A stretch of 64,000 nt of DNA, taken from contig CAYHOS010000002.1 in the NCBI GenBank assembly GCA_964358505.1, positions 9,561 through 73,560 of the forward strand, in the 5' to 3' direction. Source of the stretch: an uncultured Candidatus Peribacteria bacterium (lineage in GTDB: Bacteria; Patescibacteriota; Gracilibacteria; Peribacterales; Peribacteraceae). Positions 15,618 through 49,263 of the stretch are shown here, piece after piece; within the stretch, counting starts at the first letter, position 1; each line of letters starts with the position of its first letter. The notes beneath the pieces are model-generated. The model was not told the origin of the DNA. It saw only the letters and a list, made by a program, of their open reading frames with translations, and did not search any database. Made by a program: the position numbers and the translations under genes.

Positions 15618-16205
15618 ATGCATCATCCTCTCTCCCACTTTACCCTGAGATTCGTCGAAGGACTCCTCTCCACGACGGTCCTTGTGACGCTCCTGGCTCC
15701 CTCCGCGGGCTCGGCGCGCCGCATCGATTCCCTTCCCGGCGCCAGTTCATCGTCGTCCTCCAGCACCAGCGGTGCGGTGAAGACCACGGGGCGGCAGACC
15801 AGCCACCGCGCCGTACTACGCGCGAAGCGGCTGGAGTGGAAGGAACGCGCGGAAGGGAAACGGCCCCTTCCCTCCTCCAGCTCCTCCGCGAAGGCCGGTT
15901 CGTATGTCTACGCGCCGTTCGCGGAAGGGGTGTTGGGCAGGGGGGAGAGCGCGCTCCTGTATTTCTGTAGCAACTGGTCACGCCAGTGCCAGGGCTTGGA
16001 TACGATTCTCGAGGAATGGTCGGAAGCCCGCAAGTTCGTGATCCCCGTGTACCACGTGGAGTACGACACCTCCAGGGAACTCCGCACCACCTACGGCGTG
16101 AAGCATGTCAACACCTACGCGCACGTGGACGGCAAAGGGAAGCTCATCCGCCTCTACCGCAACCCGCCGGAAGCGGCGGTGCGGCACATTGCATACGATG
16201 AGTGA
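15618..16205 (+). CDS. secreted thioredoxin-fold protein with degenerate active site
   Basis: N-terminal hydrophobic segment and Ser-rich linker. The C-terminal Trx-like domain has FCSNWSRQC where WCxxC is expected. TACACT-ctcccc-ATG. Confidence 0.5.
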   Translation: MHHPLSHFTLRFVEGLLSTTVLVTLLAPSAGSARRIDSLPGASSSSSSSTSGAVKTTGRQTSHRAVLRAKRLEWKERAEGKRPLPSSSSSAKAGSYVYAPFAEGVLGRGESALLYFCSNWSRQCQGLDTILEEWSEARKFVIPVYHVEYDTSRELRTTYGVKHVNTYAHVDGKGKLIRLYRNPPEAAVRHIAYDE

Positions 16206-16345
16206 GATGACTGCCGCGTGATGTCCCTACCCCATCACGGATTGCCCTGTATGTCCAAGATGGAAATACAGAGAGACAATCTTTTTGCACAATAGTGTTT
16301 TTTTTGGCTTTTGCATCACCTATTTCATTAGTCCATATTTGTACT

Positions 16346-16912
16346 CATATTGTATTCGAGTCATACCCTGTCGCATACGCCACTCCAGCTAGTTGCTTGA
16401 TCCTGTGTGTTCGATAAGATGACATGATTTCTGCCGATGGCAGGAATCATCCTCACACAAAGGAGAGACAAACACCCACAGTACCCCGGGGTACCTACTC
16501 TCCCGCTCCTTCCCACCACCGTTCCACACACGTAGAGAGGAGGAAAGCCATGGACTAGCTAAACGTTCCTCCCGGCCACAATTCGCTTCACTTGCGCTTT
16601 CTGGGCACAGTGATCGTCTTGGCTTACCGTGGCTTGCCTCCTCTCTGCTCTGCAAAATCGCTTTCCCGTGCCGAGGACGCACGGGAAGTCGTCCCCCTCT
16701 TCCTCCCCTGTGCCTCCTCTGATCCCTCAGGGATCGTATGGCTGGCCGTCCCGGGGACCTCGTTCGGTTGCGAGGCTAATCAAGAACCATCGCAGGGCAG
16801 CAGAAGAAGCTCCTCCTTCACTCCTTCACTCTGTCGTTTCCGAGGCCAAACGAGCCTGCTTAAACACAGAGACAAACAGAGAGAAGACCGAACCTCACCG
16901 TTCGGTCTTCTC
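16346..16912 (+). ncRNA. candidate large structured non-coding RNA, unclassified (paralog 1)
   Basis: 730-nt gap between convergent genes with no credible ORF. Promoter-like TTGCAT-17-CATATT (16311-16339), many strong hairpins, and a 22-position long-range helix 16542-16563/16627-16648. Shares ordered blocks and covarying helices with the minus strand of 47068-47740. Confidence 0.45.
16881..16912. terminator. 13-bp hairpin downstream of convergent transcription units
   Basis: GAGAAGACCGAAC-ctcacc-GTTCGGTCTTCTC. On the minus strand it is followed by the T-rich tctgtttgtctctgtgttt, 22 nt after the stop of the 16935..18302 gene. Confidence 0.6.
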
Positions 16913-16934
16913 TTCATCTACAGAGCCAAACAAC

Positions 16935-18302
16935 TCATGCGCCTGGCACGGTGATCAGCCTCAGGGCGGTGAAAGGACCGGTCCGGTTGTCGCGCACGAT
17001 GATCTCGTCCGTTTCGTCCACCAGCGTGTTGCGGTCGAAGTCGTAGCGGTCGTCCATCGGCGCGGGGTCGGACGATGCGCGCGGATTGTTGCGCACGCCG
17101 ATCTCGTCGGTGGCATTCACCAGCGCGTCGGTCGCCGAGTTGCCCGCTTCCCCCACGGCATTGCCGGCGTACCACACGTCATCCGCCGCGAGTCCCGTGT
17201 TCTCCGTGGCCAGCAGCGTCACCTGGAGCCAGGAATTGCGGATAGCCCCGTCGGTCCAGACGAGCGTGATGCGATCGCTGCCGCCTTCACCGGCTCCCGC
17301 ACGCACGGAAATGCTCACCGGGGTTGGGGCTGCGGTCCACGCGGACAGGTTGTTCGCGTTGCCGGCCTTGAAGGTGAAGTCGCCGGCCGTGGGAGTGCCC
17401 GGCAAACCGCGGACGTCGATCATCAGGCCGTTGATGCCCTTTGCGTAGCCGGTGTAGTTGACGAAGGAGGCGGTCTCACCCGGCAAGAGCGGCGTTTTGT
17501 CGGGGGCAATGGCGTTGTCGTCGAAGGCATTGGCAGTCGGGTCGCCCTCGGGGAAGCCGGTGTGCGCATCCCACGTGGAGTTGTTGTAGAACATCCGGCG
17601 GCTCACAACGGTGCTGTACGCGGGGCCCCTAGGCGCGGTGTCCCGGACCCGTGAAGGCTGGTCGTCAGGGACATTCCCTGACGGAAGGTTCCGCTGCACT
17701 GCACTGGAGGATGAAGCCCCGACGGATGCCGACGAGGACTGGGAGGACGAAGAGGCTTGGGAAGATGAGGAGGAAACTGCGGAGGAGGAGGAACTTTGAG
17801 ACGGTGCTGTTCCGAGCGATGAAGAATATCCGGACGAAGAAGAACCGGAGGAATCAGCCGAGGAGACGTTGAATGTCTCGGAACAAGCCTGCCCGAACGC
17901 CTCCCCTCTTTCATTGAACATCTGAACCGTGAGCGTATGGGCGCCCGCGCCCTGGGGGATTCCTGACCGCAGGGTGAAGGTGACGGGCTGGCGCGGCCGT
18001 ATCGCCCGCCGGCGAAGGGAAACCTTGGTGGCGGAACCGGAGGAAACGTCATCCCAGGAATACGCGAGTGCATGCGTGCCGTTCTTCCAGACGGTTTTGC
18101 CGGTGTTCTTCAGTTTCATGCGCGCAACGAGCAATGCAGGCTCTTTCGCATCCACGAAGATGCGTTGCAGTACGCATACGGCATCTTCCCGCTGCAAACG
18201 GGAGATTGGGATGGTTTGGGAATCCGCCGCAAGGGCGGGAGTTGTGCTTGCGATGGAGAGAGCGCACAAACCGAAGGAAACAAGGCGTTTTATGCTACGC
18301 AT
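16935..18302 (-). CDS. secreted protein with long Ser-rich linker and C-terminal Asp-rich (dockerin-like) segment
   Basis: Signal peptide MRSIKRLVSFGLCALSIASTTPALA and a poly-Ser/Gln/Ala tract of about 60 aa. The C-terminus has DFDRNTLVDETDEIIVRDN. TTGACA-16-TATAGT promoter upstream. Confidence 0.65.
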   Translation of the reverse strand: MRSIKRLVSFGLCALSIASTTPALAADSQTIPISRLQREDAVCVLQRIFVDAKEPALLVARMKLKNTGKTVWKNGTHALAYSWDDVSSGSATKVSLRRRAIRPRQPVTFTLRSGIPQGAGAHTLTVQMFNERGEAFGQACSETFNVSSADSSGSSSSGYSSSLGTAPSQSSSSSAVSSSSSQASSSSQSSSASVGASSSSAVQRNLPSGNVPDDQPSRVRDTAPRGPAYSTVVSRRMFYNNSTWDAHTGFPEGDPTANAFDDNAIAPDKTPLLPGETASFVNYTGYAKGINGLMIDVRGLPGTPTAGDFTFKAGNANNLSAWTAAPTPVSISVRAGAGEGGSDRITLVWTDGAIRNSWLQVTLLATENTGLAADDVWYAGNAVGEAGNSATDALVNATDEIGVRNNPRASSDPAPMDDRYDFDRNTLVDETDEIIVRDNRTGPFTALRLITVPGA

Positions 18303-18405: not shown

Positions 18406-21096
18406 CTACATTTTCGCCGCCATCATCGTTTTGCTCGGTGGGGGCACGCCACCCGACTCGACTAATTTCTTCTCCAGATCGGAGAGGTTCTTCTGTTCTT
18501 CCACCGTCAACGTCTCCCCCACGAACTGCTTCTTGCGCAACGCATTGAACTCGTTCGTCCAAAGCTCCCTATCCCTCCACTTGCGGTACTGCGCCAGGCT
18601 CATCCCCTTCTTGCGGGCTTTCTTGAGCTCTTCCTCCTCCTTCTCCTTGGCCTTCCCCTCCGCCCTGGCCTGCGTCTTGGCCGCCTTGCCGGAGGCCAGC
18701 CATTTGGCGATCTTCTCCTCCACCACGGAAACGCGCTCGGTGTAGCGCTCCCGCGAGAGCTTGCGGATCACGTCCACGCGCTTGGGATCCTCCTCCGCTT
18801 CCGGAGGCGGCAGCGTGCTCACGGAGAAGGGCTTGCTTGGCACCCCGTGGATCATGAGGCGGAGGTAGGCGTGGTACTTGGGGAGGCTGAGGATGTCCTT
18901 GGGCAAGACGACTTCTTCGAACTGCTCGCTGAGCGGCTCGGCGTCGTCGGAGCCGATCTGGAAGCACAGGAGCGAGCCCACGTTGCCGAAAATGGCGTCC
19001 TTGAGGGTGGTGTTGTTCCTCTCGCCGAAGAGGAGCTGGTTCACGTATTGGTTGGCCATCGTCAAATTGAGGCGGTACTTCCGCGCCTCGGAGAGGATGG
19101 TGGCAAAGGACTCCGTGGCGAAGTTCTGGAACTCGTCCACGTAGAGGTAGAAATCCTTCCGATCGCTCTCGGGAACGTCCGCCCTGCTCATGGCGTCCAG
19201 CTGGAACTTGGTGACCATCATGGAGCCGAGGAAGGCGGCGTTATCCTCCCCCAGCTTCCCCTTGCTGAGGTTCATGAGGATGATCTTCCCCGTATCCATG
19301 GCGTGGCGGATATCCAGTGTGGAGGTGACCTGGCCCACGATGTTGCGGACGAGGGGCGTGGAGACGAGCTGCCCGATCTTGTTCTGGAGCGCCGCGATGG
19401 CCTCGGTGCGGTACTTCTCGGACCAGTTTGTATACTCGTCCTCCCAAAAGCTCTTCACCAGGTGGTTCGTGGTCCGCTCCAGGATCTTGGCCCGGAAGGG
19501 GTCGTCCACGAAGATGCGGAGGATCCCCAGCATGGAGTTGTTCTCGGCTTCGATGAGCGCAAGGAGCGCGTTGCGGAGGATGTACTCCATGCGGCCGGAG
19601 AAGGCTTCCGGCCACAGCTTCTTGAAGATGCTCATGAGGCCGGAGGCCACGAGCGCGTGCTGCTCGGGGTTAGGGCAGTTGAGCATGTTGAAGGAGACGG
19701 GGAACTCGCGGTCCGCGGGGTCGAAGAGGATCACGTCGTTCGTGCGGCTTGAGGGGATGCACCGCAGCGCCGCGTCCACCAGATCCCCGTGGGGATCGAT
19801 GACGGCAACCCCTTTCCCCGCAAGGATGTCCGAACGGATCATGTTCTCCAGGAGGACGGACTTGCCCATCCCCGTCTTCCCGATGATGTACATGTGGCGG
19901 CGGCGGTCATCCGTGCGGATGCCGAACTTCTTGCGTTCCCCGCGGAACACCGCCTCCCCAAGGACCGTGAGTTCAGGATCCGGTACGTCGCCGACGATGG
20001 GGAGATCCACGGGCGGCTCCGCCTTGCGGTATGCCACCCAGTCGAAATTAGGGGTTTTGACGAGGATATTGGGCACGTGCCAGAGGGTGGCAACCTCCTC
20101 CACCGAGAGGACATACGGCCGCTCGCGGAAGCCGTGGGGTAAGCTGGAGACGTTCCGCGTGGCCCCTTCTTGGAAGCCGTTGGACTGGGGGAGGGTGAAG
20201 GGGCGGAAGCTGGAGATGATCTCGTCCGCCTTCGCCTCCGCCTGGGCATGCGCCTCCGCGGGCGCCATCACGCTCACGCGGACGTTGGCGAGGAAGAGGA
20301 GCCGGTTCACCTTGTCCACGGCGGCCGTCTCCGCGTCCTCCCGCTCGTGGCTGCGCATGCTCACCCGGTGGTCCTCGTCCGCTTCCGCCGCGTGGGCATC
20401 TTCTTCCGTGAGCGTTGCCAATGCCATGGGATTGATGAACCAGGTGCGGAACCCTCCCATGACCATATCGAGCGGAAAGAGGAGGAGCCGCCGCCAGCCC
20501 CGGGCAAGGTGGACGGAGCAGAAGAGCTTGGCGTACCAGGGGAAGTGCTTGGGGAGCCCTTTGACGAGGAACGGGATGAACGCCAGCGCCCGACGGCGGA
20601 AGCGCGGCCCCAGCGGCTTGATGGCCACTTGGATGTGGCCGCGCATGCCCGCGGCGGGGTAGCGGACGAGGGAGGAGGCCATCCCCGCGATGGTGTCCAC
20701 GTGCTGCCGCGTCACGAGGTCGATGAACTGCGGATAGCGCTTGATGGGCTGCACTTCCGGCCCCGTGGGCAGCAGATCGCAGAAGACCGCTGTCTCCCCC
20801 TCTTGGGGATCCAGGAGCCCCGCGGGCACCTCTTCGATCTCCGCGTCGGGATACTGCGCGTAGAGCTGGCTCTCGATGAGGGCGGCGGCTTTGCGGCTGG
20901 AGCGGACGTAGAGCGAGATCTTCCCCTCGCTCACGCCCATTTCCAGGCATACCGTCCCGTCCGCTCCCTTGAGCGAGTGCACAGCCGAGAGCACGGCCTC
21001 CATCATCAGGGGGCCGCGCGCGGCGCTCAGCGTATCGTCCGGATCGGGAAGGGAGGGGCGGATTCTCAGGAGAACTTCTTTCGGGCGTGATGCCAT
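18406..21096 (-). CDS. VirD4/TraD-like (type IV coupling protein family) P-loop ATPase, orphan
   Basis: Walker A IIGKTGMGKSV, Walker B FYLYVDEFQNF, an N-terminal domain of about 390 aa of unknown function and a Lys/Glu-rich C-terminal tail. ATG 21096 is preceded by TATACT-acccattg. The ORF track start at 21174 is a TTG. Confidence 0.8.
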   Translation of the reverse strand: MASRPKEVLLRIRPSLPDPDDTLSAARGPLMMEAVLSAVHSLKGADGTVCLEMGVSEGKISLYVRSSRKAAALIESQLYAQYPDAEIEEVPAGLLDPQEGETAVFCDLLPTGPEVQPIKRYPQFIDLVTRQHVDTIAGMASSLVRYPAAGMRGHIQVAIKPLGPRFRRRALAFIPFLVKGLPKHFPWYAKLFCSVHLARGWRRLLLFPLDMVMGGFRTWFINPMALATLTEEDAHAAEADEDHRVSMRSHEREDAETAAVDKVNRLLFLANVRVSVMAPAEAHAQAEAKADEIISSFRPFTLPQSNGFQEGATRNVSSLPHGFRERPYVLSVEEVATLWHVPNILVKTPNFDWVAYRKAEPPVDLPIVGDVPDPELTVLGEAVFRGERKKFGIRTDDRRRHMYIIGKTGMGKSVLLENMIRSDILAGKGVAVIDPHGDLVDAALRCIPSSRTNDVILFDPADREFPVSFNMLNCPNPEQHALVASGLMSIFKKLWPEAFSGRMEYILRNALLALIEAENNSMLGILRIFVDDPFRAKILERTTNHLVKSFWEDEYTNWSEKYRTEAIAALQNKIGQLVSTPLVRNIVGQVTSTLDIRHAMDTGKIILMNLSKGKLGEDNAAFLGSMMVTKFQLDAMSRADVPESDRKDFYLYVDEFQNFATESFATILSEARKYRLNLTMANQYVNQLLFGERNNTTLKDAIFGNVGSLLCFQIGSDDAEPLSEQFEEVVLPKDILSLPKYHAYLRLMIHGVPSKPFSVSTLPPPEAEEDPKRVDVIRKLSRERYTERVSVVEEKIAKWLASGKAAKTQARAEGKAKEKEEEELKKARKKGMSLAQYRKWRDRELWTNEFNALRKKQFVGETLTVEEQKNLSDLEKKLVESGGVPPPSKTMMAAKM

Positions 21097-21116
21097 CAAT
21101 GGGTAGTATACAGGAA

Positions 21117-21209
21117 ACGGACTTCGGACATCGGACTTCGGGCTAGACACTAGGTGGCCAAAGACCGCCTTCAAGAAACTTCAACCGAAGTCCGAATGCC
21201 GAAGTCCGT
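21117..21209. repeat. inverted repeat of GAAGTCC-type heptamer words (family A)
   Basis: acggacttcggacatcggacttcgg (21117-21141) pairs with ccgaagtccgaatgccgaagtccgt (21185-21209). The arms are 25 nt and near-perfect, with a spacer of about 43 nt, between the hrcA stop and the ATPase promoter. Confidence 0.8.
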
Positions 21210-24174: not shown

Positions 24175-24966
24175 TCATTTTTCTCCCCCTCCTTTCCGAA
24201 CCGCCATTCTCTCCACGATCCATCCCTCCAGATCCCATCCGGTCCAGCGCTCGAAGCGATGGAATACGCGCCGGACCATTTCATCCCTGTGCTCTTTCCT
24301 CTCCGTCTCCTTCGTCGGTTCACAGATGCGGATCGCGTCGATGAGAAACTTTTCATTCGGCTGGACCTTTGGACCCCGGATATCCCACGCCCGCGCGATC
24401 TCGCTTGGGGTGAGGACTGTTGGCTTTGCTTCGCCTTCGCGCTCCGCGAGATATGCTCCGATCATTGCAGCGCGACGTTGGTGGTACGGATGCGTGACGG
24501 CGGATACCGCATGGAGATTCTGCTCGTGTGCAATACGCAGCGCCTGTGCACATTCATCACGGGTACGTTTCGTAAGGCGTTCGACATGCGGCTGGAGAAG
24601 CTCACAACGAATGTCCAGGGGAACGTTGCCGTAGATGGTTTCTGCAATTTCCGCGCCATACCGCCATTGGCCGTCCCACATCCACTGGCATCCCTCCAAG
24701 AACAACGGCCGTGCGCGCGTACCCCTGTCGTCTCTCCTGAGGCCTAGCCCGTGCAACGCCGCCGCGAACACGCGCGCCACGTTCTCCGCCACTTCTCTCT
24801 GCACTGCAACGACTTGCTGAAGAACCTCCAGGTATTGTGTCCTCTCCATAGGCTCCCCCGATACTGTATCGATCCCCCGGATCGCCTTCCTGAGGAGGCT
24901 TTGCTTCTGCGAATCCAGCACCGGGGGAACATCCCTTTTGAAGAGCGGAATGACACCGATTTTCAT
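24175..24966 (-). CDS. hypothetical protein, possibly YdcF/DUF218-like
   Basis: AVTHPYHQRRAAMIGAY resembles the DUF218 TsxyHmxRa motif. Lower-GC segment. Confidence 0.45.
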   Translation of the reverse strand: MKIGVIPLFKRDVPPVLDSQKQSLLRKAIRGIDTVSGEPMERTQYLEVLQQVVAVQREVAENVARVFAAALHGLGLRRDDRGTRARPLFLEGCQWMWDGQWRYGAEIAETIYGNVPLDIRCELLQPHVERLTKRTRDECAQALRIAHEQNLHAVSAVTHPYHQRRAAMIGAYLAEREGEAKPTVLTPSEIARAWDIRGPKVQPNEKFLIDAIRICEPTKETERKEHRDEMVRRVFHRFERWTGWDLEGWIVERMAVRKGGGEK

Positions 24967-24994: not shown

Positions 24995-25219
24995 TCACCC
25001 CTTCGGCTTGGGGGACCCGGCAGCCATCCTCTTCCTGAACCGTTCCACCCGTCCGCCGCGCGCTTCCTTGTTCGCCTTTCCGGTGTAGACGGGGTGGCAG
25101 CTGCGGCATACTTCCACGCTCTGCTCTTTGACCGTTGAGGGGATCAAATACACCGTCCCGCAGGTGGAGCAGGTCGTTTTTGCGTCCTTGATCATTGCTG
25201 GATGGATACCGGATTTCAT
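24995..25219 (-). CDS. rpmE: 50S ribosomal protein L31
   Basis: The C-terminal 74 aa of ORF 24995..25453 read MKSGIHPAMIKDAKTTCSTCGTVYLIPST...CRSCHPVYTGK. TACACT-actcccatc-ATG. Confidence 0.9.
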   Translation of the reverse strand: MKSGIHPAMIKDAKTTCSTCGTVYLIPSTVKEQSVEVCRSCHPVYTGKANKEARGGRVERFRKRMAAGSPKPKG

Positions 25220-25333
25220 GATGGGAGTAGTGTAACAGAGTACTGGTATACGAGAATACGGGATTACGGGTATGGAGGAAAGTGCATTGTTATTGATTTT
25301 GACTCCAAATGCAAGTACTGACATAATCCTTCT

Positions 25334-25972
25334 ATGAGCCCGCGTAAATACCCTTCGGACAACAACCAAAACGAATTCGAACGGCAACGATGGAACGGCG
25401 GTGCCGAGGTGGAACTCTCGGTACTCCTGCAGCAACTCCAATCCATAGGCCATTCTCCTACCGAAATCGACCTCATCATGAATTTAGCTTCCACTTCTCT
25501 GGCAGCCGAGGGATATCATTATGCGCTGCAACAACAGAGCTGCGCTACCACTGTGATCCGACTCCTGGAAGAGCACAAAAAATGCAGAATATGTGCTTAC
25601 GAAATTATACCAACTCTCCAGCATATACATTCCCTGGACGTCCAGAAAGCGCAAGCACATGCCACAGCATGCGAGGAAGGCCACTACGATACGCTCAAGC
25701 AACTGTCAGATCTTCTCTCCTATCAAGTATCGCCTGATGAAGTTCCTCTGAAGCCGGGAGACATGGAACGATTCGCGGGATGTCAGCACCTTCAACAAGC
25801 ACAAACCCTCCTGGATTCATGTCGGTCAGGCTCAACATTCATGAACGGCCGCGAACTTTGGCAATGCGTGTGCCAGTACAAGATATCACCGGAATCTATC
25901 GGCTCAACGCCGGAGGAAATCCAACAGCTTGCCGATGCGTCCTTCCACTTCGGCATCAAGGGAAACAACTAG
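25334..25972 (+). CDS. hypothetical protein (212 aa), no recognisable domain
   Basis: Full promoter TTGACT (25299-25304), 17-nt spacer, CATAAT (25322-25327), then 6 nt to ATG 25334. Lower GC. Confidence 0.5.
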   Translation: MSPRKYPSDNNQNEFERQRWNGGAEVELSVLLQQLQSIGHSPTEIDLIMNLASTSLAAEGYHYALQQQSCATTVIRLLEEHKKCRICAYEIIPTLQHIHSLDVQKAQAHATACEEGHYDTLKQLSDLLSYQVSPDEVPLKPGDMERFAGCQHLQQAQTLLDSCRSGSTFMNGRELWQCVCQYKISPESIGSTPEEIQQLADASFHFGIKGNN

Positions 25973-36083: not shown

Positions 36084-36159
36084 TGGTGGAGCATGCCGGA
36101 TTCGAACCGGCGACCTTCTGGTTGCAAACCAGACGCTCTACCAACTGAGCTAATGCCCC
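36084..36159 (-). tRNA. tRNA-Ala (anticodon UGC)
   Basis: GGGGCAT-TA-GCTC-AGTTGGTA-GAGC-G-TCTGG-TTTGCAA-CCAGA-AGGTC-GCCGG-TTCGAAT-CCGGC-ATGCTCC-A-CCA. The G3:U70 identity pair is present. Confidence 0.92.
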
Positions 36160-36874: not shown

Positions 36875-38047
36875 TCACGCCACAATCTCCCCCACTCTTC
36901 CTTCCTCCACCGCCTTCCGTATTTCCATCCCCACGCGTTCCCCCACGCTCATGGATTGGCCGTAGAGGTACCCGGAGTACGGGGTTGCCATGATTCCGGG
37001 GGAGCCGGGGATGCGGAGGCTGACGTCGAAGATCACGATGTCCTCCTTCCCCTCCTCCGCCACCACCGCCCCCTGCAGAGCGAACGGCCCGATGATCCCC
37101 TTGCCGGAAGGGTCGAGCTCCGGATGCTTGGCGTGGAGGTCCTGCGTGGCTTTGACGAACTTCTCCCCCAGGTCGAACGCCTTCTCCAGGAGCGACTCCT
37201 TGACGGTGCAGGCGATGTGCCCGGTTTCGATCATTTTCAGGTCCACGTGCGCCAGCGCTTTGGCCTGCTCCCTCGCCGTCATGCGGAGGAAGCCGTCCAG
37301 GTTCGTCTGCCGGCGCGTATCCGTGCCGAGCAGTTCCAGCTCCTTCGTGAGCGGCGAGTAGAAGAAGTTGAAGTTGACGGGCGCACCCACAACGAACTCC
37401 TCCAGGGGGGCCTGCCGCCACTTGGCCGTGACCTTCCCCTCTTTCTCCAGGCGGGACCCCTCCGCTTCCCATGAATGCCGGTCCTCCACGAGGAAGAACG
37501 CCCTCTCGTACCCCCGCTGCGCTTCGCTGGCCTTGACGAGGACGGGGCGGTCAATCTCCTCGGGCTTTGCGAAGATCGTGGGCGTGCGGATGCCGGCGTC
37601 CCTCAGGAGATGGTACTGGTTGTACGGTTGGTCACGCTCCTCCAGCTTGAGGAGCGTCCGCGACCCGAAGATCGGCACGTTGAACCCGTTCTCGACCTTC
37701 GAAAAATCATCGAAGTAGACCCAGAAGTAGCGGTTGTGGACGAAGATCGTACTCATCTCCCGCAGCTTCTTCTGGACATCGTCCCGCAAGACATCGGCAA
37801 ACTTCTCCACGAGAATCACCTCATCAATACAACCCTTGGAAATCCCTTCGTCCGAAGTCCGAGGTCCTAATTCCTTCGTCCTAAAGTACTCCGTATACGT
37901 CCTCTCCCTCCCCTTGCGCGCCACGCAGAGCGTCCTGAACCCCCACTGCCTGGCGCCGTGGCACACGTCCAGGGCGCTATGGCCGCCGAGGACGCCGATG
38001 GCGAGGTTCTGCAAATCGTAGCCGGAGAGGAGATCCTTTGTATTCAT
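36875..38047 (-). CDS. purP: PurP-like ATP-grasp enzyme (archaeal-type FAICAR synthetase family), paralog 1
   Basis: IGVLGGHSALDVCHGAR...PEEIDRPVLVK...EEFVVGAPVNFNFFYSP...GPFALQG. TACAAT-ctctcc-ATG at 38047. Confidence 0.85.
   Translation of the reverse strand: MNTKDLLSGYDLQNLAIGVLGGHSALDVCHGARQWGFRTLCVARKGRERTYTEYFRTKELGPRTSDEGISKGCIDEVILVEKFADVLRDDVQKKLREMSTIFVHNRYFWVYFDDFSKVENGFNVPIFGSRTLLKLEERDQPYNQYHLLRDAGIRTPTIFAKPEEIDRPVLVKASEAQRGYERAFFLVEDRHSWEAEGSRLEKEGKVTAKWRQAPLEEFVVGAPVNFNFFYSPLTKELELLGTDTRRQTNLDGFLRMTAREQAKALAHVDLKMIETGHIACTVKESLLEKAFDLGEKFVKATQDLHAKHPELDPSGKGIIGPFALQGAVVAEEGKEDIVIFDVSLRIPGSPGIMATPYSGYLYGQSMSVGERVGMEIRKAVEEGRVGEIVA
37852..37874. repeat. family-A heptamer repeat embedded in frame in purP1
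   Basis: ccgaagtcc-gaggtcc-taattcc compared with ccgaagtcc-gaagtcc-taagtcc at 56184-56206. It encodes KELGPRTSDEG, which the adjacent paralog lacks. Confidence 0.65.
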
Positions 38048-38108
38048 GGAGAGATTGTAATGCAAAATGGATAATGAAGAACGCAAAAAGTGAGGAGCTC
38101 GATCGCCC

Positions 38109-45628: not shown

Positions 45629-45735
45629 GGACACGGCATGCCGCGTCCTTACGATGATCCATGGAGCCATGCTTTTCTGCATGTCATGGGAAGCGCGGTA
45701 GCGCTTCCCCCCGCCCTGCGCTACCCTCAGCCCAC

Positions 45736-47031
45736 ATGAAGGTCGCCCGCGTCCTCCTCCCCCTCACCCTCGCCCTCCTGCTCGTGGCGGGGTTGCTTGC
45801 GTACCTGTGGCTGAACCTGGGCAACGCCGCGCAGGCTTTTCGCGTCCGCCCCATCCAAAACCCCCTCACCGCCAGCGTCCAGGACTTCTCCCCGGATGCC
45901 GGGGAAGGGACGGAAGGCGCCGCGCTCACGCATGTGCGGGAAGGCGACCGCAGTGCGCTCGCGGGGGATTGGAAGGGCGCGCAGGAAGCGTACGAGGCTG
46001 CCGTGGCCGCGGACGGCGGCGTGACGGCGCTCAAGAAACTCGCCCTCGCGCAGCTCCAGCGTCGTGACCTCAAGGCCGCTTCCCACACCGTCGAGCGCCT
46101 GCGGCGGGAGGGCGCCCGCGCGGAGGACATCCTCCTCCTGTCCGTCACCCTCGCCCTGCACCAACAAGACCTCACCCGGGCGGCAACGCTCCTCGGCAAG
46201 GCCGGCGAATCCCCGCACCGCCACTACGCCTCCGCCCTCCTGGCCATCGTGCAGGGGGAGCATGCACAAGCCCAGGCGGAGCTGCGCCTGGCCATGGACG
46301 GATGGGATCCGGTATTACGCACCTACGCCCGCACACTCCTGGACGCCTACGAGGAGTACGCGCTCTTCCCCCAGAGCCCCCCCATCCACCTCTCCACCCT
46401 CCTCGCCCGCAGCCTGGCGCAAGTGCAGGAATGCGCCCTCGCCCTCCCCTTCCTCAGCCGGGTGACGCAGCAGCAGGATGACTACCGCGACGCGTGGATC
46501 GTGCAGGGCTACTGCCAACTGGTCACGGAACGGACGCAGGAAGCACTGGCCTCCTTTGAGCGGAGTTACACCCTGGACCCCCAGAAGCCGGAGATCCAGT
46601 ACTTCCTGGGACGGACGTACGGCGCCATGGAGGACCACAAGAACGCCCTCACCTTCCTGCAGTACGCGCTCATGAACGGCTTCAATCCGGAGAAGGACGT
46701 GCGCCGCGCCATCGCCGCGGAGGCGGAGAAGGCAGGGAACGTGCAGCTGGCATTCGAGCAGGAGAAGATCCTCGCCACCGCTTCCGGCTCCGACCTGGCT
46801 TCCATCGCAGCGTTCGTCGCGTTGGCCCTCCGGGCGGAGCGGCAAAATGACGCCTTTGAAGCCGCGGAGAAGGCCACCCTCCGCTGGCCCGATTCCGCGC
46901 AGGCGTACGCCCTCCTGGGCTCCGCCGCGGAGGCCGCCGGGAAGAAGGATGAGGCGCGTTCCGCCTACGGGCGCGCGCTGGAGCTGGATGGCTCCCTGGA
47001 CGAGGTGAAGGAAAAACTCCTGAACTTGTGA
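45736..47031 (+). CDS. membrane-anchored TPR-repeat protein
   Basis: MKVARVLLPLTLALLLVAGLLAYLW (TM) followed by multiple TPR-like repeats. TACCCT-cagcccac-ATG. Confidence 0.75.
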   Translation: MKVARVLLPLTLALLLVAGLLAYLWLNLGNAAQAFRVRPIQNPLTASVQDFSPDAGEGTEGAALTHVREGDRSALAGDWKGAQEAYEAAVAADGGVTALKKLALAQLQRRDLKAASHTVERLRREGARAEDILLLSVTLALHQQDLTRAATLLGKAGESPHRHYASALLAIVQGEHAQAQAELRLAMDGWDPVLRTYARTLLDAYEEYALFPQSPPIHLSTLLARSLAQVQECALALPFLSRVTQQQDDYRDAWIVQGYCQLVTERTQEALASFERSYTLDPQKPEIQYFLGRTYGAMEDHKNALTFLQYALMNGFNPEKDVRRAIAAEAEKAGNVQLAFEQEKILATASGSDLASIAAFVALALRAERQNDAFEAAEKATLRWPDSAQAYALLGSAAEAAGKKDEARSAYGRALELDGSLDEVKEKLLNL

Positions 47032-47067
47032 TACCAGCATGCAATGGAAAGTGGTGTGCTGACGAAC

Positions 47068-47105
47068 AAAAAGACCGGCTTTCACCGATCTTTTTGTTTT
47101 TGTCT
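47068..47105. terminator. bidirectional intrinsic terminator
   Basis: AAAAAGACCGG-ctttca-CCGATCTTTTT followed by tgtttttgtctttt. The A-tract and T-tract allow termination in both directions. Confidence 0.7.
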
Positions 47106-47740
47106 TTTCCTCCCTGCGGACTATCAACGCCGAGTCACATGAGTCGAGCGCTGAGCCCCGTAATTGGAGAGGAGGACAGTGGGGGGAGGAGCCCCCGCTC
47201 CCTGCCTTGCTCGGGTTTCTTGTTTCTCCTCGGAACCCTCCGAAGTCCCCGTACCGGCCTGCCGCGAAGTGACGTGAGTCTCTTGGGAGGCACTGGGGAG
47301 AAGCAGGATGCACGCCGCTGGAGCGTCCTCACTTCCGCGGCGTGACATTGCAGAGCAGAGAGAATGGTAGCCGCTTGGTGTCCCGGGCACGCCCGCGCAT
47401 GCGGACGATACCGGAGGACAGGAACGGTCCGCACATCCCCGGATGCGCGGAAAGTCTTGAGCTTATGGGAAGGGACGGACCTCGGGAGCACAATGGATTG
47501 TGCGGAGGAGCGTGTTCCAGCCAGGGTGCCGTTTGGGACGGCCACCACCCTCTCTGCGGGAATCAGGGATCGATCCGCTCTCTCTTTCCGATTCCTGATT
47601 CCTTTCCTGTGTGTGTCAATGATCTGTTTTTGGGTTCTGTTTCCCTCTGTTTGTGCGCCCCGGGGCGCTTGTGTGTTTGTCTGTTTCTGTTGGTGATTTG
47701 CTCCCCACCCTTCGTTGGTACTCCAGGCGAGGAACAAATC
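47068..47740 (-). ncRNA. candidate large structured non-coding RNA, unclassified (paralog 2)
   Basis: 830-nt gap with no credible gene. Minus-strand promoter-like TTGCAC-16-TACGAT (reverse complement of 47746-47773). 18-bp helix 47540-47557/47355-47372 with 3 G-U pairs on the minus-strand reading. Block-wise homology to 16346-16912. Confidence 0.45.
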
Positions 47741-47865
47741 TGGGCATCGTACTCCGTATTGGATAACGTGCAAGATTTTGCGCTGGCGTAGAGCGGTGTA
47801 TTGTTTCACGAATACATTTTGTATTCAGGGAGACAGGAACCGATTATCCGCTAGAATCCCACAAA

Positions 47866-49263
47866 ATGACCGCTCCCCCACGCCTCCCGCGCCTCCTCCT
47901 CCCCCTTGCCATAGCCCTCCTCTTGGCTGTGTTGGGAACGGCACTCGTTTTCGCGGCTTTTCTCTTCCCTTCCAGGCAGAAGACGACGGCTGAGCTCCTG
48001 CCGGCGCGTGAAACCGTTGCCCTCTTCCACAATCTCACGACGGAGGATGCCGAGCGCTTCGCCCCGCGCTTCCCCATCCTGCAGGAAATCCCCCTCCCCC
48101 GGGAAGGCGGAACGGACGTTGCCATTGTGCGGCACCAGAACGGCAAGTACGGCTGGGTGGTGTTCCTCACGGGTGAGGCGGCAAAGGCCGTCAGCTCGCG
48201 CTTCCCGCTCGATACCGAGGACCTCGTGGTACGCGGCTCATCCGGCGCCCTTGCCCTGCTCGCAAGGCCCAATGTCCCCTCCCTCGCGAAGCTTGCAGAT
48301 TACCGAACACTCGTCCGGCTGGCGCCGCAGGAGAGGACGTGGCTGTTCCTCTCGGGCAACGTGATCCTTTCCGGGATCACGGAGGAGGACCGGCAGCTGC
48401 TGCAGCGCCTCAAGGACCATCCTTCCCTCCTCATCCAATGGGAGGATACCCGCGCCACCCTCTCCTTCGTGTCCCCCGCCTTGGGCGCCGTCCGGCTCTC
48501 CATGCCGCCCCCCGCGCTGGAACCCTCCCCCTCGTTCTCCGCCGCATTCACGCATCCTCAGAGGACGACGGAAGACCTGGCTTCCCTGTTCTCCCCTGCC
48601 GCCTCCCTCCTGTTGGAGGGGATAGTGCAACGGGAATGGGAACGGCTCATAGGAACGGAGGCGAGCGGGCGCTACGACCTCCTCCCGCTGCTGGGGAGGG
48701 AAGCCTCCGTGAGCGTCCTGCGGAGCCAGAGCGGGAGCCTGCGCTTCCTCCTGCAAACGCACACGCAGGACCCGGATGCGGCCAAGCGCATCGACCGCCT
48801 CCACCGCAGCGTCAAGCAGGCGCTCTCCACGCAGCGCATCGTGAGCCGGAACCTCCCCGAAGGCTTCGCGGTGACCACGATCGAGGATGACCCGGCGGTG
48901 ATCAACGAGGTACGGTCGCAATCGGGTGCATGGGCGATGCGGATGACGCGCCGGACGGACACGGGGGAGGGACTATGGACCGCTACGAACGGCCGCCGCC
49001 TCTTCCTCTCCAATGATCCTGCATGGTTGCTGCAGGTGATGATGAGGAATCCCGTCCCCTCCCTCACCCTCTCCCCGGGGCCGGGCACGCCGACCATGGG
49101 CGGGATCGTGGAGCGCACCGCTCTCCGGGGCTTCTTCAAGAACACCCTCAACCTCACCCTCCCCTCCACCCTCCTCTCCACCTTCGGCCCGCAGGGCGAC
49201 CGGTTCCTCTGGTCCGTTTCCCACACAGGGCTTGTGGCGACGGTGACGGTGGAAGGCGAATGA
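47866..49263 (+). CDS. membrane-anchored hypothetical protein (465 aa)
   Basis: N-terminal TM LLLPLAIALLLAVLGTALVFAAFLF followed by a large extracytoplasmic domain. TAGAAT-cccacaaa-ATG. Confidence 0.65.
   Translation: MTAPPRLPRLLLPLAIALLLAVLGTALVFAAFLFPSRQKTTAELLPARETVALFHNLTTEDAERFAPRFPILQEIPLPREGGTDVAIVRHQNGKYGWVVFLTGEAAKAVSSRFPLDTEDLVVRGSSGALALLARPNVPSLAKLADYRTLVRLAPQERTWLFLSGNVILSGITEEDRQLLQRLKDHPSLLIQWEDTRATLSFVSPALGAVRLSMPPPALEPSPSFSAAFTHPQRTTEDLASLFSPAASLLLEGIVQREWERLIGTEASGRYDLLPLLGREASVSVLRSQSGSLRFLLQTHTQDPDAAKRIDRLHRSVKQALSTQRIVSRNLPEGFAVTTIEDDPAVINEVRSQSGAWAMRMTRRTDTGEGLWTATNGRRLFLSNDPAWLLQVMMRNPVPSLTLSPGPGTPTMGGIVERTALRGFFKNTLNLTLPSTLLSTFGPQGDRFLWSVSHTGLVATVTVEGE

Follow-up and report, generated by a model that had tools for sequence, protein, structure and literature searches.

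A candidate family of large structured noncoding RNAs encoded by two diverged paralogues in Candidatus Peribacteria

A 64,000-nucleotide (nt) stretch of DNA from an uncultured Candidatus Peribacteria bacterium (assembly GCA_964358505.1, contig CAYHOS010000002.1, positions 9,561 to 73,560; hereafter the window) contains, at 16426-16919 on the plus strand and at 47740-47065 on the minus strand, two diverged copies of one RNA gene, with 61% identity between their cores. We propose, with considerable confidence, that these genes represent a real new family of structured noncoding RNAs (ncRNAs). The comparisons described below indicate that the family is probably one of large, 500-700-nt, independently transcribed RNAs, previously undescribed and so far found only in Candidatus Peribacteria/Peribacteraceae.

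A putative RNA gene in two diverged copies

A sequence-only reading of this DNA had described a large noncoding element between convergent genes and a second copy on the minus strand some 31 kb away. We located the first gap at 16206-16934 (729 nt), between the convergent open reading frames (ORFs) 15618-16205 (+) and 16935-18302 (-); the gap of copy 2 is flanked by ORFs 45661-47031 (+) and 47866-49263 (+), and its blocks are read on the minus strand. All eight of the sequence blocks said to be shared are present, in the same order, on the plus strand at 16.4-16.9 kb and on the minus strand at 47.1-47.7 kb. They include the palindromic hairpins GTACCCCGGGGTAC (16481-16494) and GCGCCCCGGGGCGC (47655-47668), an identical 15-mer whose sole exact matches in the window are at 16641-16655 (+) and 47348-47362 (-), and a hairpin-presented motif, GAGGACGC, at 16673-16680 and 47323-47330. 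The long helix described for copy 1 also exists, with its 3' strand at 16627-16648 (+) as reported; its 5' strand lies at 16532-16553 and not, as had been given, at 16542-16563, a difference of 10 nt. Overall, our analysis supports the interpretation of the sequence-only reading except for the promoter, the 5' boundary and this one coordinate.

A profile hidden Markov model (HMM) built exclusively from the cores of 12 external homologues gave exactly two matches in the 64-kb window, with E-values of 1.9e-29 for copy 1 and 6.7e-49 for copy 2. Relative to shuffled sequences, the minimum free energy z-score was -7.2 for copy 1 and -8.3 for copy 2. We considered a third copy at 24795, where the 15-mer recurs with one mismatch. 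This match lies inside an ORF and was seen by neither the HMM nor the covariance model (CM), and we therefore take it to be due to chance.

Homologues occupy two syntenic positions in Candidatus Peribacteria genomes

Searching for the conserved blocks elsewhere, as had been suggested, recovered homologues by nhmmer and pattern scans, for 14 members in all. We scanned the pattern CTCTGCTCTGCAA-N8-38-GAGGACGC over one genome per species (185,579 species) and obtained 10 loci, of which three were true homologues, all from Candidatus Peribacteria; the other seven correspond to the number expected by chance. Pattern loci L001-L004, L007, L009-L012 and L015, at chance level and confirmed by neither nhmmer nor the CM, were discarded. 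A pattern scan of metagenomes led to a 105-kb contig with both copies, a second genome of this kind, in which one copy is 87% identical to copy 1 and the other 95% identical to the 3' half of copy 2. Eleven further loci were retrieved through homologues of the TPR protein and of SHMT, and nhmmer located the RNA in seven of them. Together with the two copies in the window, the family has 12 external members (L005, L006, L008, L013, L014, L016, L017, L019 and L022-L025), and all 14 come from Candidatus Peribacteria/Peribacteraceae assemblies, which belong to the candidate phyla radiation (CPR). The SHMT of the window is 100% identical to a protein of a metagenome-assembled genome named as a Patescibacteria group bacterium, and its nearest relatives are named Peribacteraceae or Peregrinibacteria.

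The members fall into two positional types. Synteny comparison places type A, which includes copy 1, downstream of glyA on the same strand, and type B, which includes copy 2, between the convergent TPR gene and a divergent 460-aa gene, beyond which lie secF and tig. Four genomes carry both types (the window; L013 and L014; L023 and L017; L025 and L022), always as the same paralogue pair at the same two syntenic positions, which strengthens the earlier argument that two copies are at odds with a single-copy housekeeping RNA. Synteny is stable across genomes whose flanking proteins share only about 50% identity; the flanking genes seen are glyA, a thioredoxin-like gene, a HerA-like ATPase, the TPR gene, the 460-aa protein and secF. 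No type A copy was detected by CM or nhmmer at a more distant glyA locus, L026. Just past the type A locus, several genomes carry a conserved HerA/TrwB-like ATPase of 890-920 aa with DUF87, TrwB_AAD_bind and DUF8128 domains (window 18406-21174 (-); L023 8416-11094; L024 8108-10786). At L018 (5305-5469), L020 (5302-5335) and L021 (5302-5427), the order TPR gene, 430-aa gene, secF and tig is kept, with no room for a type B RNA gene.

Consistent with the earlier view that no protein explains these loci, no ORF is conserved among members, and the ORFs inside both window loci have no Pfam match. The phase and strand of the stop-free frames change from one member to the next, and in members of lower GC content the frames are down to 56-85 codons. 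On this basis we rejected a coding gene. Long stop-free frames do occur in GC-rich members, such as one of 224 codons at 47135-47809, and could be read as traces of a decayed protein gene, of an insertion sequence or intron remnant, or of another mobile element. Against such an origin stand the shifting frames and missing Pfam matches, the stable synteny, the compensatory evolution of the helices (below) and the lack of any detected similarity to phage records, plasmid records or viral contigs, and we consider it the least probable of all the alternatives, with almost no chance of being correct. A HEARO/omega RNA or other guide RNA of a mobile element was likewise rejected, since no IscB, TnpB, Cas or reverse-transcriptase domains were found among the neighbouring genes and the positions are syntenic.

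A core of near-constant size with covarying helices

The 3' core of the RNA is 182-189 nt long in all 14 members. It is preceded by a clamp helix, P-a (GYAGAGAG.../...CUCUCUGC), which follows the motif UUCACAYCAYC, forms in 13 of the 14 members with duplex energies of -25 to -48 kcal/mol, and encloses an insert that ranges from 4 to 149 nt. The sequence of the inner half of P-a is wholly different between members while its pairing is kept, that is, it covaries. Within the core, helix P-b (UCUGC/GCAAG) closes a four-way junction of P-c, P-d/e/f and P-g. P-b directly adjoins P-a, so that the two helices probably stack coaxially. P-c is a hairpin with a GAGGA loop; P-d (UCCCC/GGGGA) leads to P-e and to a variable hairpin, P-f; and P-g is a hairpin with the loop nGGUnn, in which GGU is present in 13 of the 14 members. 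After P-g come a near-invariant A-rich joining strand, AGAAACAAGAAACC, then GGCAG and the hairpin P-h, with loop (C/A)UCCUC; past the core, P-h is followed by a variable tail and an intrinsic terminator. In the window, the elements of copy 1 are as follows:

16532-16648 (+): P-a, pairing 16532-16553 with 16627-16648 around a 73-nt insertion domain
16641-16825 (+): core (CM R1, 144 bits, E 1e-36)
16649-16653 with 16792-16796 (+): P-b
16657-16692 (+): P-c, loop GAGGA at 16673-16677
16704-16757 (+): P-d/e/f
16758-16775 (+): P-g
16776-16791 (+): A-rich joining strand, followed by GGCAG
16803-16819 (+): P-h, loop UCCUC at 16811-16815

The corresponding elements of copy 2 are:

47355-47557 (-): P-a, pairing 47557-47539 with 47373-47355 around a 149-nt insertion domain, dG -41.9 kcal/mol
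47175-47362 (-): core, which also has P-b (CM R1, 204 bits, E 2e-52)
47348-47308 (-): P-c
47299-47246 (-): P-d/e/f
47245-47228 (-): P-g
47227-47211 (-): joining strand AGAAACAAGAAACCCGA
47210-47202 (-): GCAAGGCAG
47196-47182 (-): P-h

We measured covariation on a structure-blind MAFFT alignment, with slid-partner controls and 500 shuffles, and also on a CM-fitted alignment. Standard pairs occupied 83.6% of the paired cells in the MAFFT alignment and 86% in the CM-fitted alignment, as compared with 42-50% for slid partners. Double-sided changes were seen in 34 (MAFFT) and 35 (CM-fitted) of 51 pairs, versus 7-18 for slid partners, and the covariation score was 0.396 and 0.447, respectively, versus about 0.12. 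None of the 500 shuffles reached the observed value with either alignment. The helices drawn in the sequence-only reading are thus backed by covariation among homologues, and so are further helices. Compensatory changes include C-G to U-A at two different pairs of P-d in two lineages, a change in P-e from GCCUCC/GG-AGGC to GUUCCC/GG-GAAC or GAUCCC/GGGAUC, and three pairs of P-b altered together in L025 (UCUGC/GCAAG to UACAC/AUGUG). There are 60 G-U pairs and 28-37 A-C cells, an excess of G-U over A-C that fits the annotated strand.

All 14 members have GAGG in the loop of P-c and CCUC in that of P-h, two invariant sequences that are complementary to each other. At the fifth position, in GAGGN:NCCUC, nine members have A-U, one has G-U and one has U-A, and the remaining three have no pair. 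These sequences make a GAGG:CCUC loop-loop contact plausible. The segment CUCUGC stands in the near-tandem CUCUCUGCUCUGC, at 16641-16653 in copy 1, opposite 16532-16537 and 16796-16802, and at 47362-47350 in copy 2, opposite 47557-47552 and 47206-47200.

The unpaired nucleotides of the core are very highly conserved, including the junction strands CUCUCUGCUCUGCAA, AGAAACAAGAAACC and GGCAG. Such conservation in a compact core of constant size could point to a ribozyme, in which the junction strands would form a catalytic centre that acts on the RNA itself or on another RNA, for example tRNA. The GGU of the P-g loop resembles the GGU in L15 of RNase P, which binds CCA. We regard a ribozyme as quite unlikely, however: no known family matches, neither a processing site nor a substrate is evident, and a motif of 3 nt is weak.

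A conserved promoter, terminator and putative transcription-factor site

All 14 members have a sigma-70-type promoter of the form TTGCnn-16/17-TAnnAT, followed by gNNNNGAUUUG. In copy 1 its hexamers are at 16393-16398 and 16415-16420. By contrast, the promoter assigned to this copy by the sequence-only reading, at 16311-16339, is not conserved, and the start proposed there, 16346, falls outside the transcript, within a conserved upstream DNA box. This box, to which the sequence-only reading had not drawn attention, is an inverted repeat with the consensus GAAYACA-N3-TGTATTC (TTGAATACA-AAA-TGTATTCATATA); it precedes all 14 members at a fixed distance of 42-43 nt before the -35 hexamer. When we scanned 285 kb with a position weight matrix (PWM), the 14 box sites scored 27-38 bits and the best unrelated match 16 bits, and within this sequence the box was found only at the 14 RNA genes. 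The box is probably a transcription-factor site, and we infer that it is bound by a dimeric factor dedicated to both RNA genes. At 47830-47857 (+), directly adjoining the box of copy 2, lies a promoter-like sequence for the divergent 465-aa gene, GAGACA-16-TAGAAT, which is conserved in type B loci; given this arrangement, the two divergent promoters may share a regulator.

Every member ends in a hairpin and a U run, and in most an A-rich tract lies 5' of the hairpin, which makes the terminator bidirectional. The terminal hairpin described for copy 1 was found at 16880-16913, and its terminator probably also serves the convergent gene 16935-18302 (-). Scans for consensus promoters and terminators were uninformative: they missed both the conserved promoter, which has 8 of 12 consensus matches, and the bidirectional terminators. 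Transcript starts at about 16426 (copy 1) and about 47740 (copy 2) were deduced from the position of the promoter. The features of the two transcription units are:

16341-16357: copy 1 upstream box GTACTCATATTGTATTC (fixed spacing, PWM)
16393-16420 (+): copy 1 promoter, TTGCTT 16393-16398, 16-nt spacer, TAAGAT 16415-16420
16426-16919 (+): copy 1 (type A) inferred transcript, ~490 nt (promoter, terminator, z -7.2)
16880-16919 (+): copy 1 terminator, hairpin 16880-16913 and U-rich tail
47810-47826: copy 2 upstream box GAATACATTTTGTATTC, a perfect 7-3-7 palindrome (spacing, PWM)
47746-47773 (-): copy 2 promoter, TTGCAC 47773-47768, 16-nt spacer, TACGAT 47751-47746
47065-47740 (-): copy 2 (type B) inferred transcript, ~675 nt (promoter, terminator 47095-47065, z -8.3)
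47119-47157 (-): copy 2 3'-tail element GGCUCA-hairpin-UGAUAGUC, common to most type B members and L024

The arrangement of these loci bears on whether the conserved sequence is a cis-acting element, such as a riboswitch or leader, the long 3' untranslated region of the upstream gene, an antisense regulator or a bidirectional terminator region. The terminal hairpins are indeed bidirectional and adjoin convergent genes, L025 has a same-strand gene downstream, and the type B box adjoins the promoter of the divergent 460-aa gene. However, the RNA has its own conserved promoter and terminator and lies clear of the flanking ORFs. At both window loci and at five external loci (type B L016, L017 and L019; type A L023 and L024) the downstream gene is convergent, leaving nothing downstream to regulate; at those loci a riboswitch or 5' leader, which we had considered, is excluded. 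In addition, types A and B share the core while their neighbours are wholly different. We conclude that a cis-acting element is very unlikely.

A variable 5' domain with a palindromic hairpin

The 5' terminus of the members is a hairpin whose stem starts with GAUUU (GAUUUG in all 14) and closes with AAUC. The remainder of the 5' domain is variable and CA-rich, often with a CCCCGGGG palindromic hairpin. In 8 of the 14 members, including both window copies, an equivalent position holds a palindrome of 10-14 nt centred on CCGG, and its outer pairs vary among members (GUACC/GGUAC, GCGCC/GGCGC, GGACU/AGUCC). L024 has at this position a hairpin with a CUUAAG centre. Because palindromes of at least 10 nt are common in shuffled sequences, we count only the conserved position and the CCGG centre. 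The features of the 5' domain in the window are:

16424-16450 (+): copy 1 5'-terminal hairpin AUGAUUUCUGCC/GGCAGGAAUCAU
16481-16494 (+): copy 1 palindromic hairpin GUACCCCGGGGUAC, CCGG centre
16509-16521 (+): copy 1 single-stranded motif CUUCCCACCACCG, family consensus UUCACAYCAYC from 14 sequences
47655-47668 (-): copy 2 palindromic hairpin GCGCCCCGGGGCGC

We checked by eye for pairing of UUCACAYCAYC with the loops of P-g or P-c and observed complementarity of only 3-5 nt that was inconsistent, so that we do not propose such pairing. In most members, CA-rich linkers and two or three AGACAAACA-like motifs, in varying number, are found within the 5' domain and again shortly ahead of the terminator. 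Together with the two paralogues, a number usual for sponge RNAs (CsrB/C and CrcZ/Y, for instance), this recurrence raises the question of a decoy or sponge RNA of the CsrB/RsmZ/CrcZ kind, whose CA-rich AGACAAACA stretches would titrate an RNA-binding protein. In a related version the RNA would mimic Shine-Dalgarno (SD) or anti-SD sequences: the P-h loop, (C/A)UCCUC or CACCUC, resembles the anti-SD of 16S rRNA and the P-c loop reads GAGG, so that CCUCC/GAGG elements displayed by the core would titrate mRNA leaders or the 30S subunit. Yet the best-conserved part of the RNA is a multi-helix junction of constant length with invariant joining strands and not a repeat array, the CA-rich linkers vary in number, length and sequence, and GAGG and CCUC, being complementary to each other, may simply pair. 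We consider a decoy unlikely, and rank it first among the alternatives.

Comparison with known RNAs

As predicted from sequence, the family has the generic features of a structured ncRNA gene, namely its own promoter and terminator, no conserved ORF and helices with compensatory changes. The sequence-only reading had found no match to a standard RNA, and our searches agree. We searched the window and the 12 homologous loci with the 4227 covariance models of Rfam 15 at the gathering threshold, and copy 1, copy 2 and L022 at E<=10 with relaxed filters. At the gathering score, the only matches were three tRNAs in the window and one tRNA in the 12 loci; at E<=10, the three members gave scattered matches far below threshold, such as Thr_leader on the terminator (28 bits, with a threshold of 55). 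ARAGORN found only the three tRNAs in the window, and neither it nor Rfam reported a tmRNA. In the literature on ncRNAs of Peregrinibacteria, Peribacteria, Patescibacteria and the CPR, we found no description of this RNA.

CPR lineages are divergent and have unusual RNAs, and a known RNA (RNase P, SRP, tmRNA, 6S, OLE, GOLLD, ROOL, raiA or HEARO/omega RNA) might have diverged far enough to be missed by covariance models. Copy 2, but not copy 1, has a sequence, ACAAGAAACCCGAGC, that superficially resembles the RNase P CR-V sequence ACAGAACCCGGC, and AAGGCAG is as in 4.5S RNA; neither resemblance is conserved across the family. RNase P RNA of bacterial type A or B is likewise large, contains long-range helices, A-rich joining strands and a GGU loop, and acts in trans as we propose for the Peribacteria RNAs. 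However, the RNase P models RF00010, RF00011 and RF00373 gave no match at E<=10 on copy 1, copy 2 or L022, CR-I (GAGGAAAGUCC) and CR-V (ACAGAAnnCGGCUUA) are absent from the family consensus, and there is no P4 pseudoknot. Two paralogues, and a type B site that is empty in three related genomes, do not fit a universal single-copy RNA. Given also the blank Rfam searches at E<=10 (three members) and at the gathering score (12 loci), and no association with IscB/TnpB, prophages or tRNA genes, a divergent known RNA is highly improbable.

Among large RNAs, OLE (RF01071) is similar in its length of ~600 nt, its chromosomal, vertically inherited gene at a conserved position and its many conserved helices and junctions. 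It differs in being found in Firmicutes and co-transcribed with oapA, whereas the Peribacteria RNAs are solitary units with no conserved protein partner nearby and two paralogues per genome; the OLE model has no match in the window or the 12 loci. GOLLD and ROOL typically occur in prophages or beside tRNA genes. They share with the Peribacteria RNAs a length of 500-800 nt, a variable 5' half, a highly conserved multi-junction 3' half and conserved complementary loops, but the Peribacteria loci lie in syntenic housekeeping regions, match no phage or viral sequence and have no tRNA gene beside them (the sole tRNA in the 12 loci is 6.5 kb off, in L014), and neither model has an Rfam match in the window or the 12 loci. 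The raiA motif RNA is also a stand-alone structured ncRNA, of the abundant type, with a conserved multi-stem core of ~200 nt compared with 188 nt here. It occurs in Firmicutes and Actinobacteria, usually as a single gene, lacks a long clamp helix and a variable 5' domain, and has no model match here.

A further comparison is with sponge and 6S RNAs (CsrB/CsrC, RsmY/Z, CrcZ/CrcY, 6S-1/6S-2), which also come as two diverged copies per genome, each with a promoter and terminator. CrcZ/Y and RsmY/Z are each under one shared regulator, as both Peribacteria copies appear to be. By contrast, those RNAs consist of repeated short protein-binding motifs or of a rod with a central bubble, whereas the Peribacteria RNAs have a single four-way-junction core of constant size. 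Thus, no known RNA family or mechanism was matched, although a loose category of 'large ornate bacterial ncRNAs' already exists.

Divergence of the two types and other genes of the window

Type B evolves slowly (97% identity between the window and L014) and type A faster (78% between the window and L013). In the most distant genome, the type A copy (L025 8250-8431 (+)) and the type B copy (L022 6082-6267 (-)), on the same contig, cluster together with 65% identity. Their cores share derived compensatory pairs and do not group with their positional counterparts, a pattern that suggests gene conversion or co-evolution with a common partner.

Elsewhere in the window, ORF 36875-38086 (-) has DUF1246 and DUF1297 domains and lies near tRNA-Ala 36084-36159. 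ORF 24995-25453 (-), of 152 codons, matches the ribosomal protein L31 domain only at residues 79-142, which leaves an internal true start or an N-terminal extension.

Discussion

We propose that the folded RNA would act in trans, with the constant-size core as its functional module. The invariant joining strands and loops might offer a surface or pocket to which a conserved protein, RNA or small molecule binds, or possibly make up a catalytic centre. In such a molecule P-a and P-b would be stacked coaxially, the GAGG:CCUC loop contact would lock the fold or bridge molecules, and the 5'-terminal and terminator hairpins would make the RNA long-lived. A dedicated transcription factor would control both paralogues through the upstream box. 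We judge that a trans-acting scaffold or binding module has roughly an even chance of being the correct description. A trans-acting folded RNA ranks above each alternative considered, in the order decoy, ribozyme, cis-acting element, divergent known RNA and decayed gene.

OLE, ROOL and GOLLD form RNA-only homo-oligomers (dimers and cages) through kissing loops and palindromic loop sequences, and the complementary loops of GOLLD and ROOL make quaternary kissing contacts (PMC12286853). By analogy, the palindromic hairpin and the complementary loops of the Peribacteria RNAs might mediate dimers or higher assemblies (A-A, B-B or A-B). The features that resemble self-assembly here are of sequence only, namely the CCGG palindrome in 8 of 14 members and the invariant complementary GAGG/CCUC loops. 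We put self-association forward as a testable idea, and a rather doubtful one, and do not claim it.

Several observations weigh against our proposal or parts of it. The family comprises 14 sequences from at most 10 genomes, some of them closely related and all from metagenome assemblies, and shared ancestry among so few related genomes inflates the covariation counts. Three related genomes (L018, L020 and L021) have no type B copy at the usual place, with no CM match there, so that the RNA may be dispensable. The gene neighbourhood points to no partner protein, and the flanking 455-aa and 465-aa proteins, which we had considered as possible paralogues and rejected on comparison, are unrelated to each other. 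Six of the 14 members lack the CCGG hairpin, and palindromic tetraloops are not enriched overall (3 of 53, about chance). The invariant bases and single compensatory change behind the loop-loop contact are compatible with it and do not prove it. Finally, CUCUGC has two possible partners, the 5' GYAGAG of P-a and the 3' GGCAGRG of an extended P-b, the latter being favoured by RNAalifold when the 5' strand is omitted; this dual pairing leaves part of the secondary structure ambiguous, and it may reflect a three-strand exchange, alternative conformations or a conformational switch.

The known bacterial RNAs that exceed 300 nt and have complex conserved folds make up only about a dozen classes. 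Most such large classes proved to be ribozymes, ribonucleoprotein scaffolds or self-assembling cages. More tentatively, the Peribacteria RNAs could be a new large ornate RNA class of this kind, present as two co-regulated paralogues in genomes of ~1 Mb, in which the 188-nt core and its loops drive RNA-RNA assembly or form a new catalytic or ligand-binding fold. They would then be the CPR's own equivalent of OLE, ROOL and GOLLD, unrelated to these in architecture and served by a dedicated transcription factor; we hold this possible, with the balance against it.

The family yields an alignment and a covariance model for finding further members, a compact 188-nt core for structure determination and a testable regulatory site. 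CPR/Patescibacteria have minimal genomes and a largely unexplored biology. That a lineage with such genomes keeps two genes of ~500-700 nt for a single RNA with an intricate fold, and that operator, promoter and terminator are conserved in both, implies an important unrecognised function.

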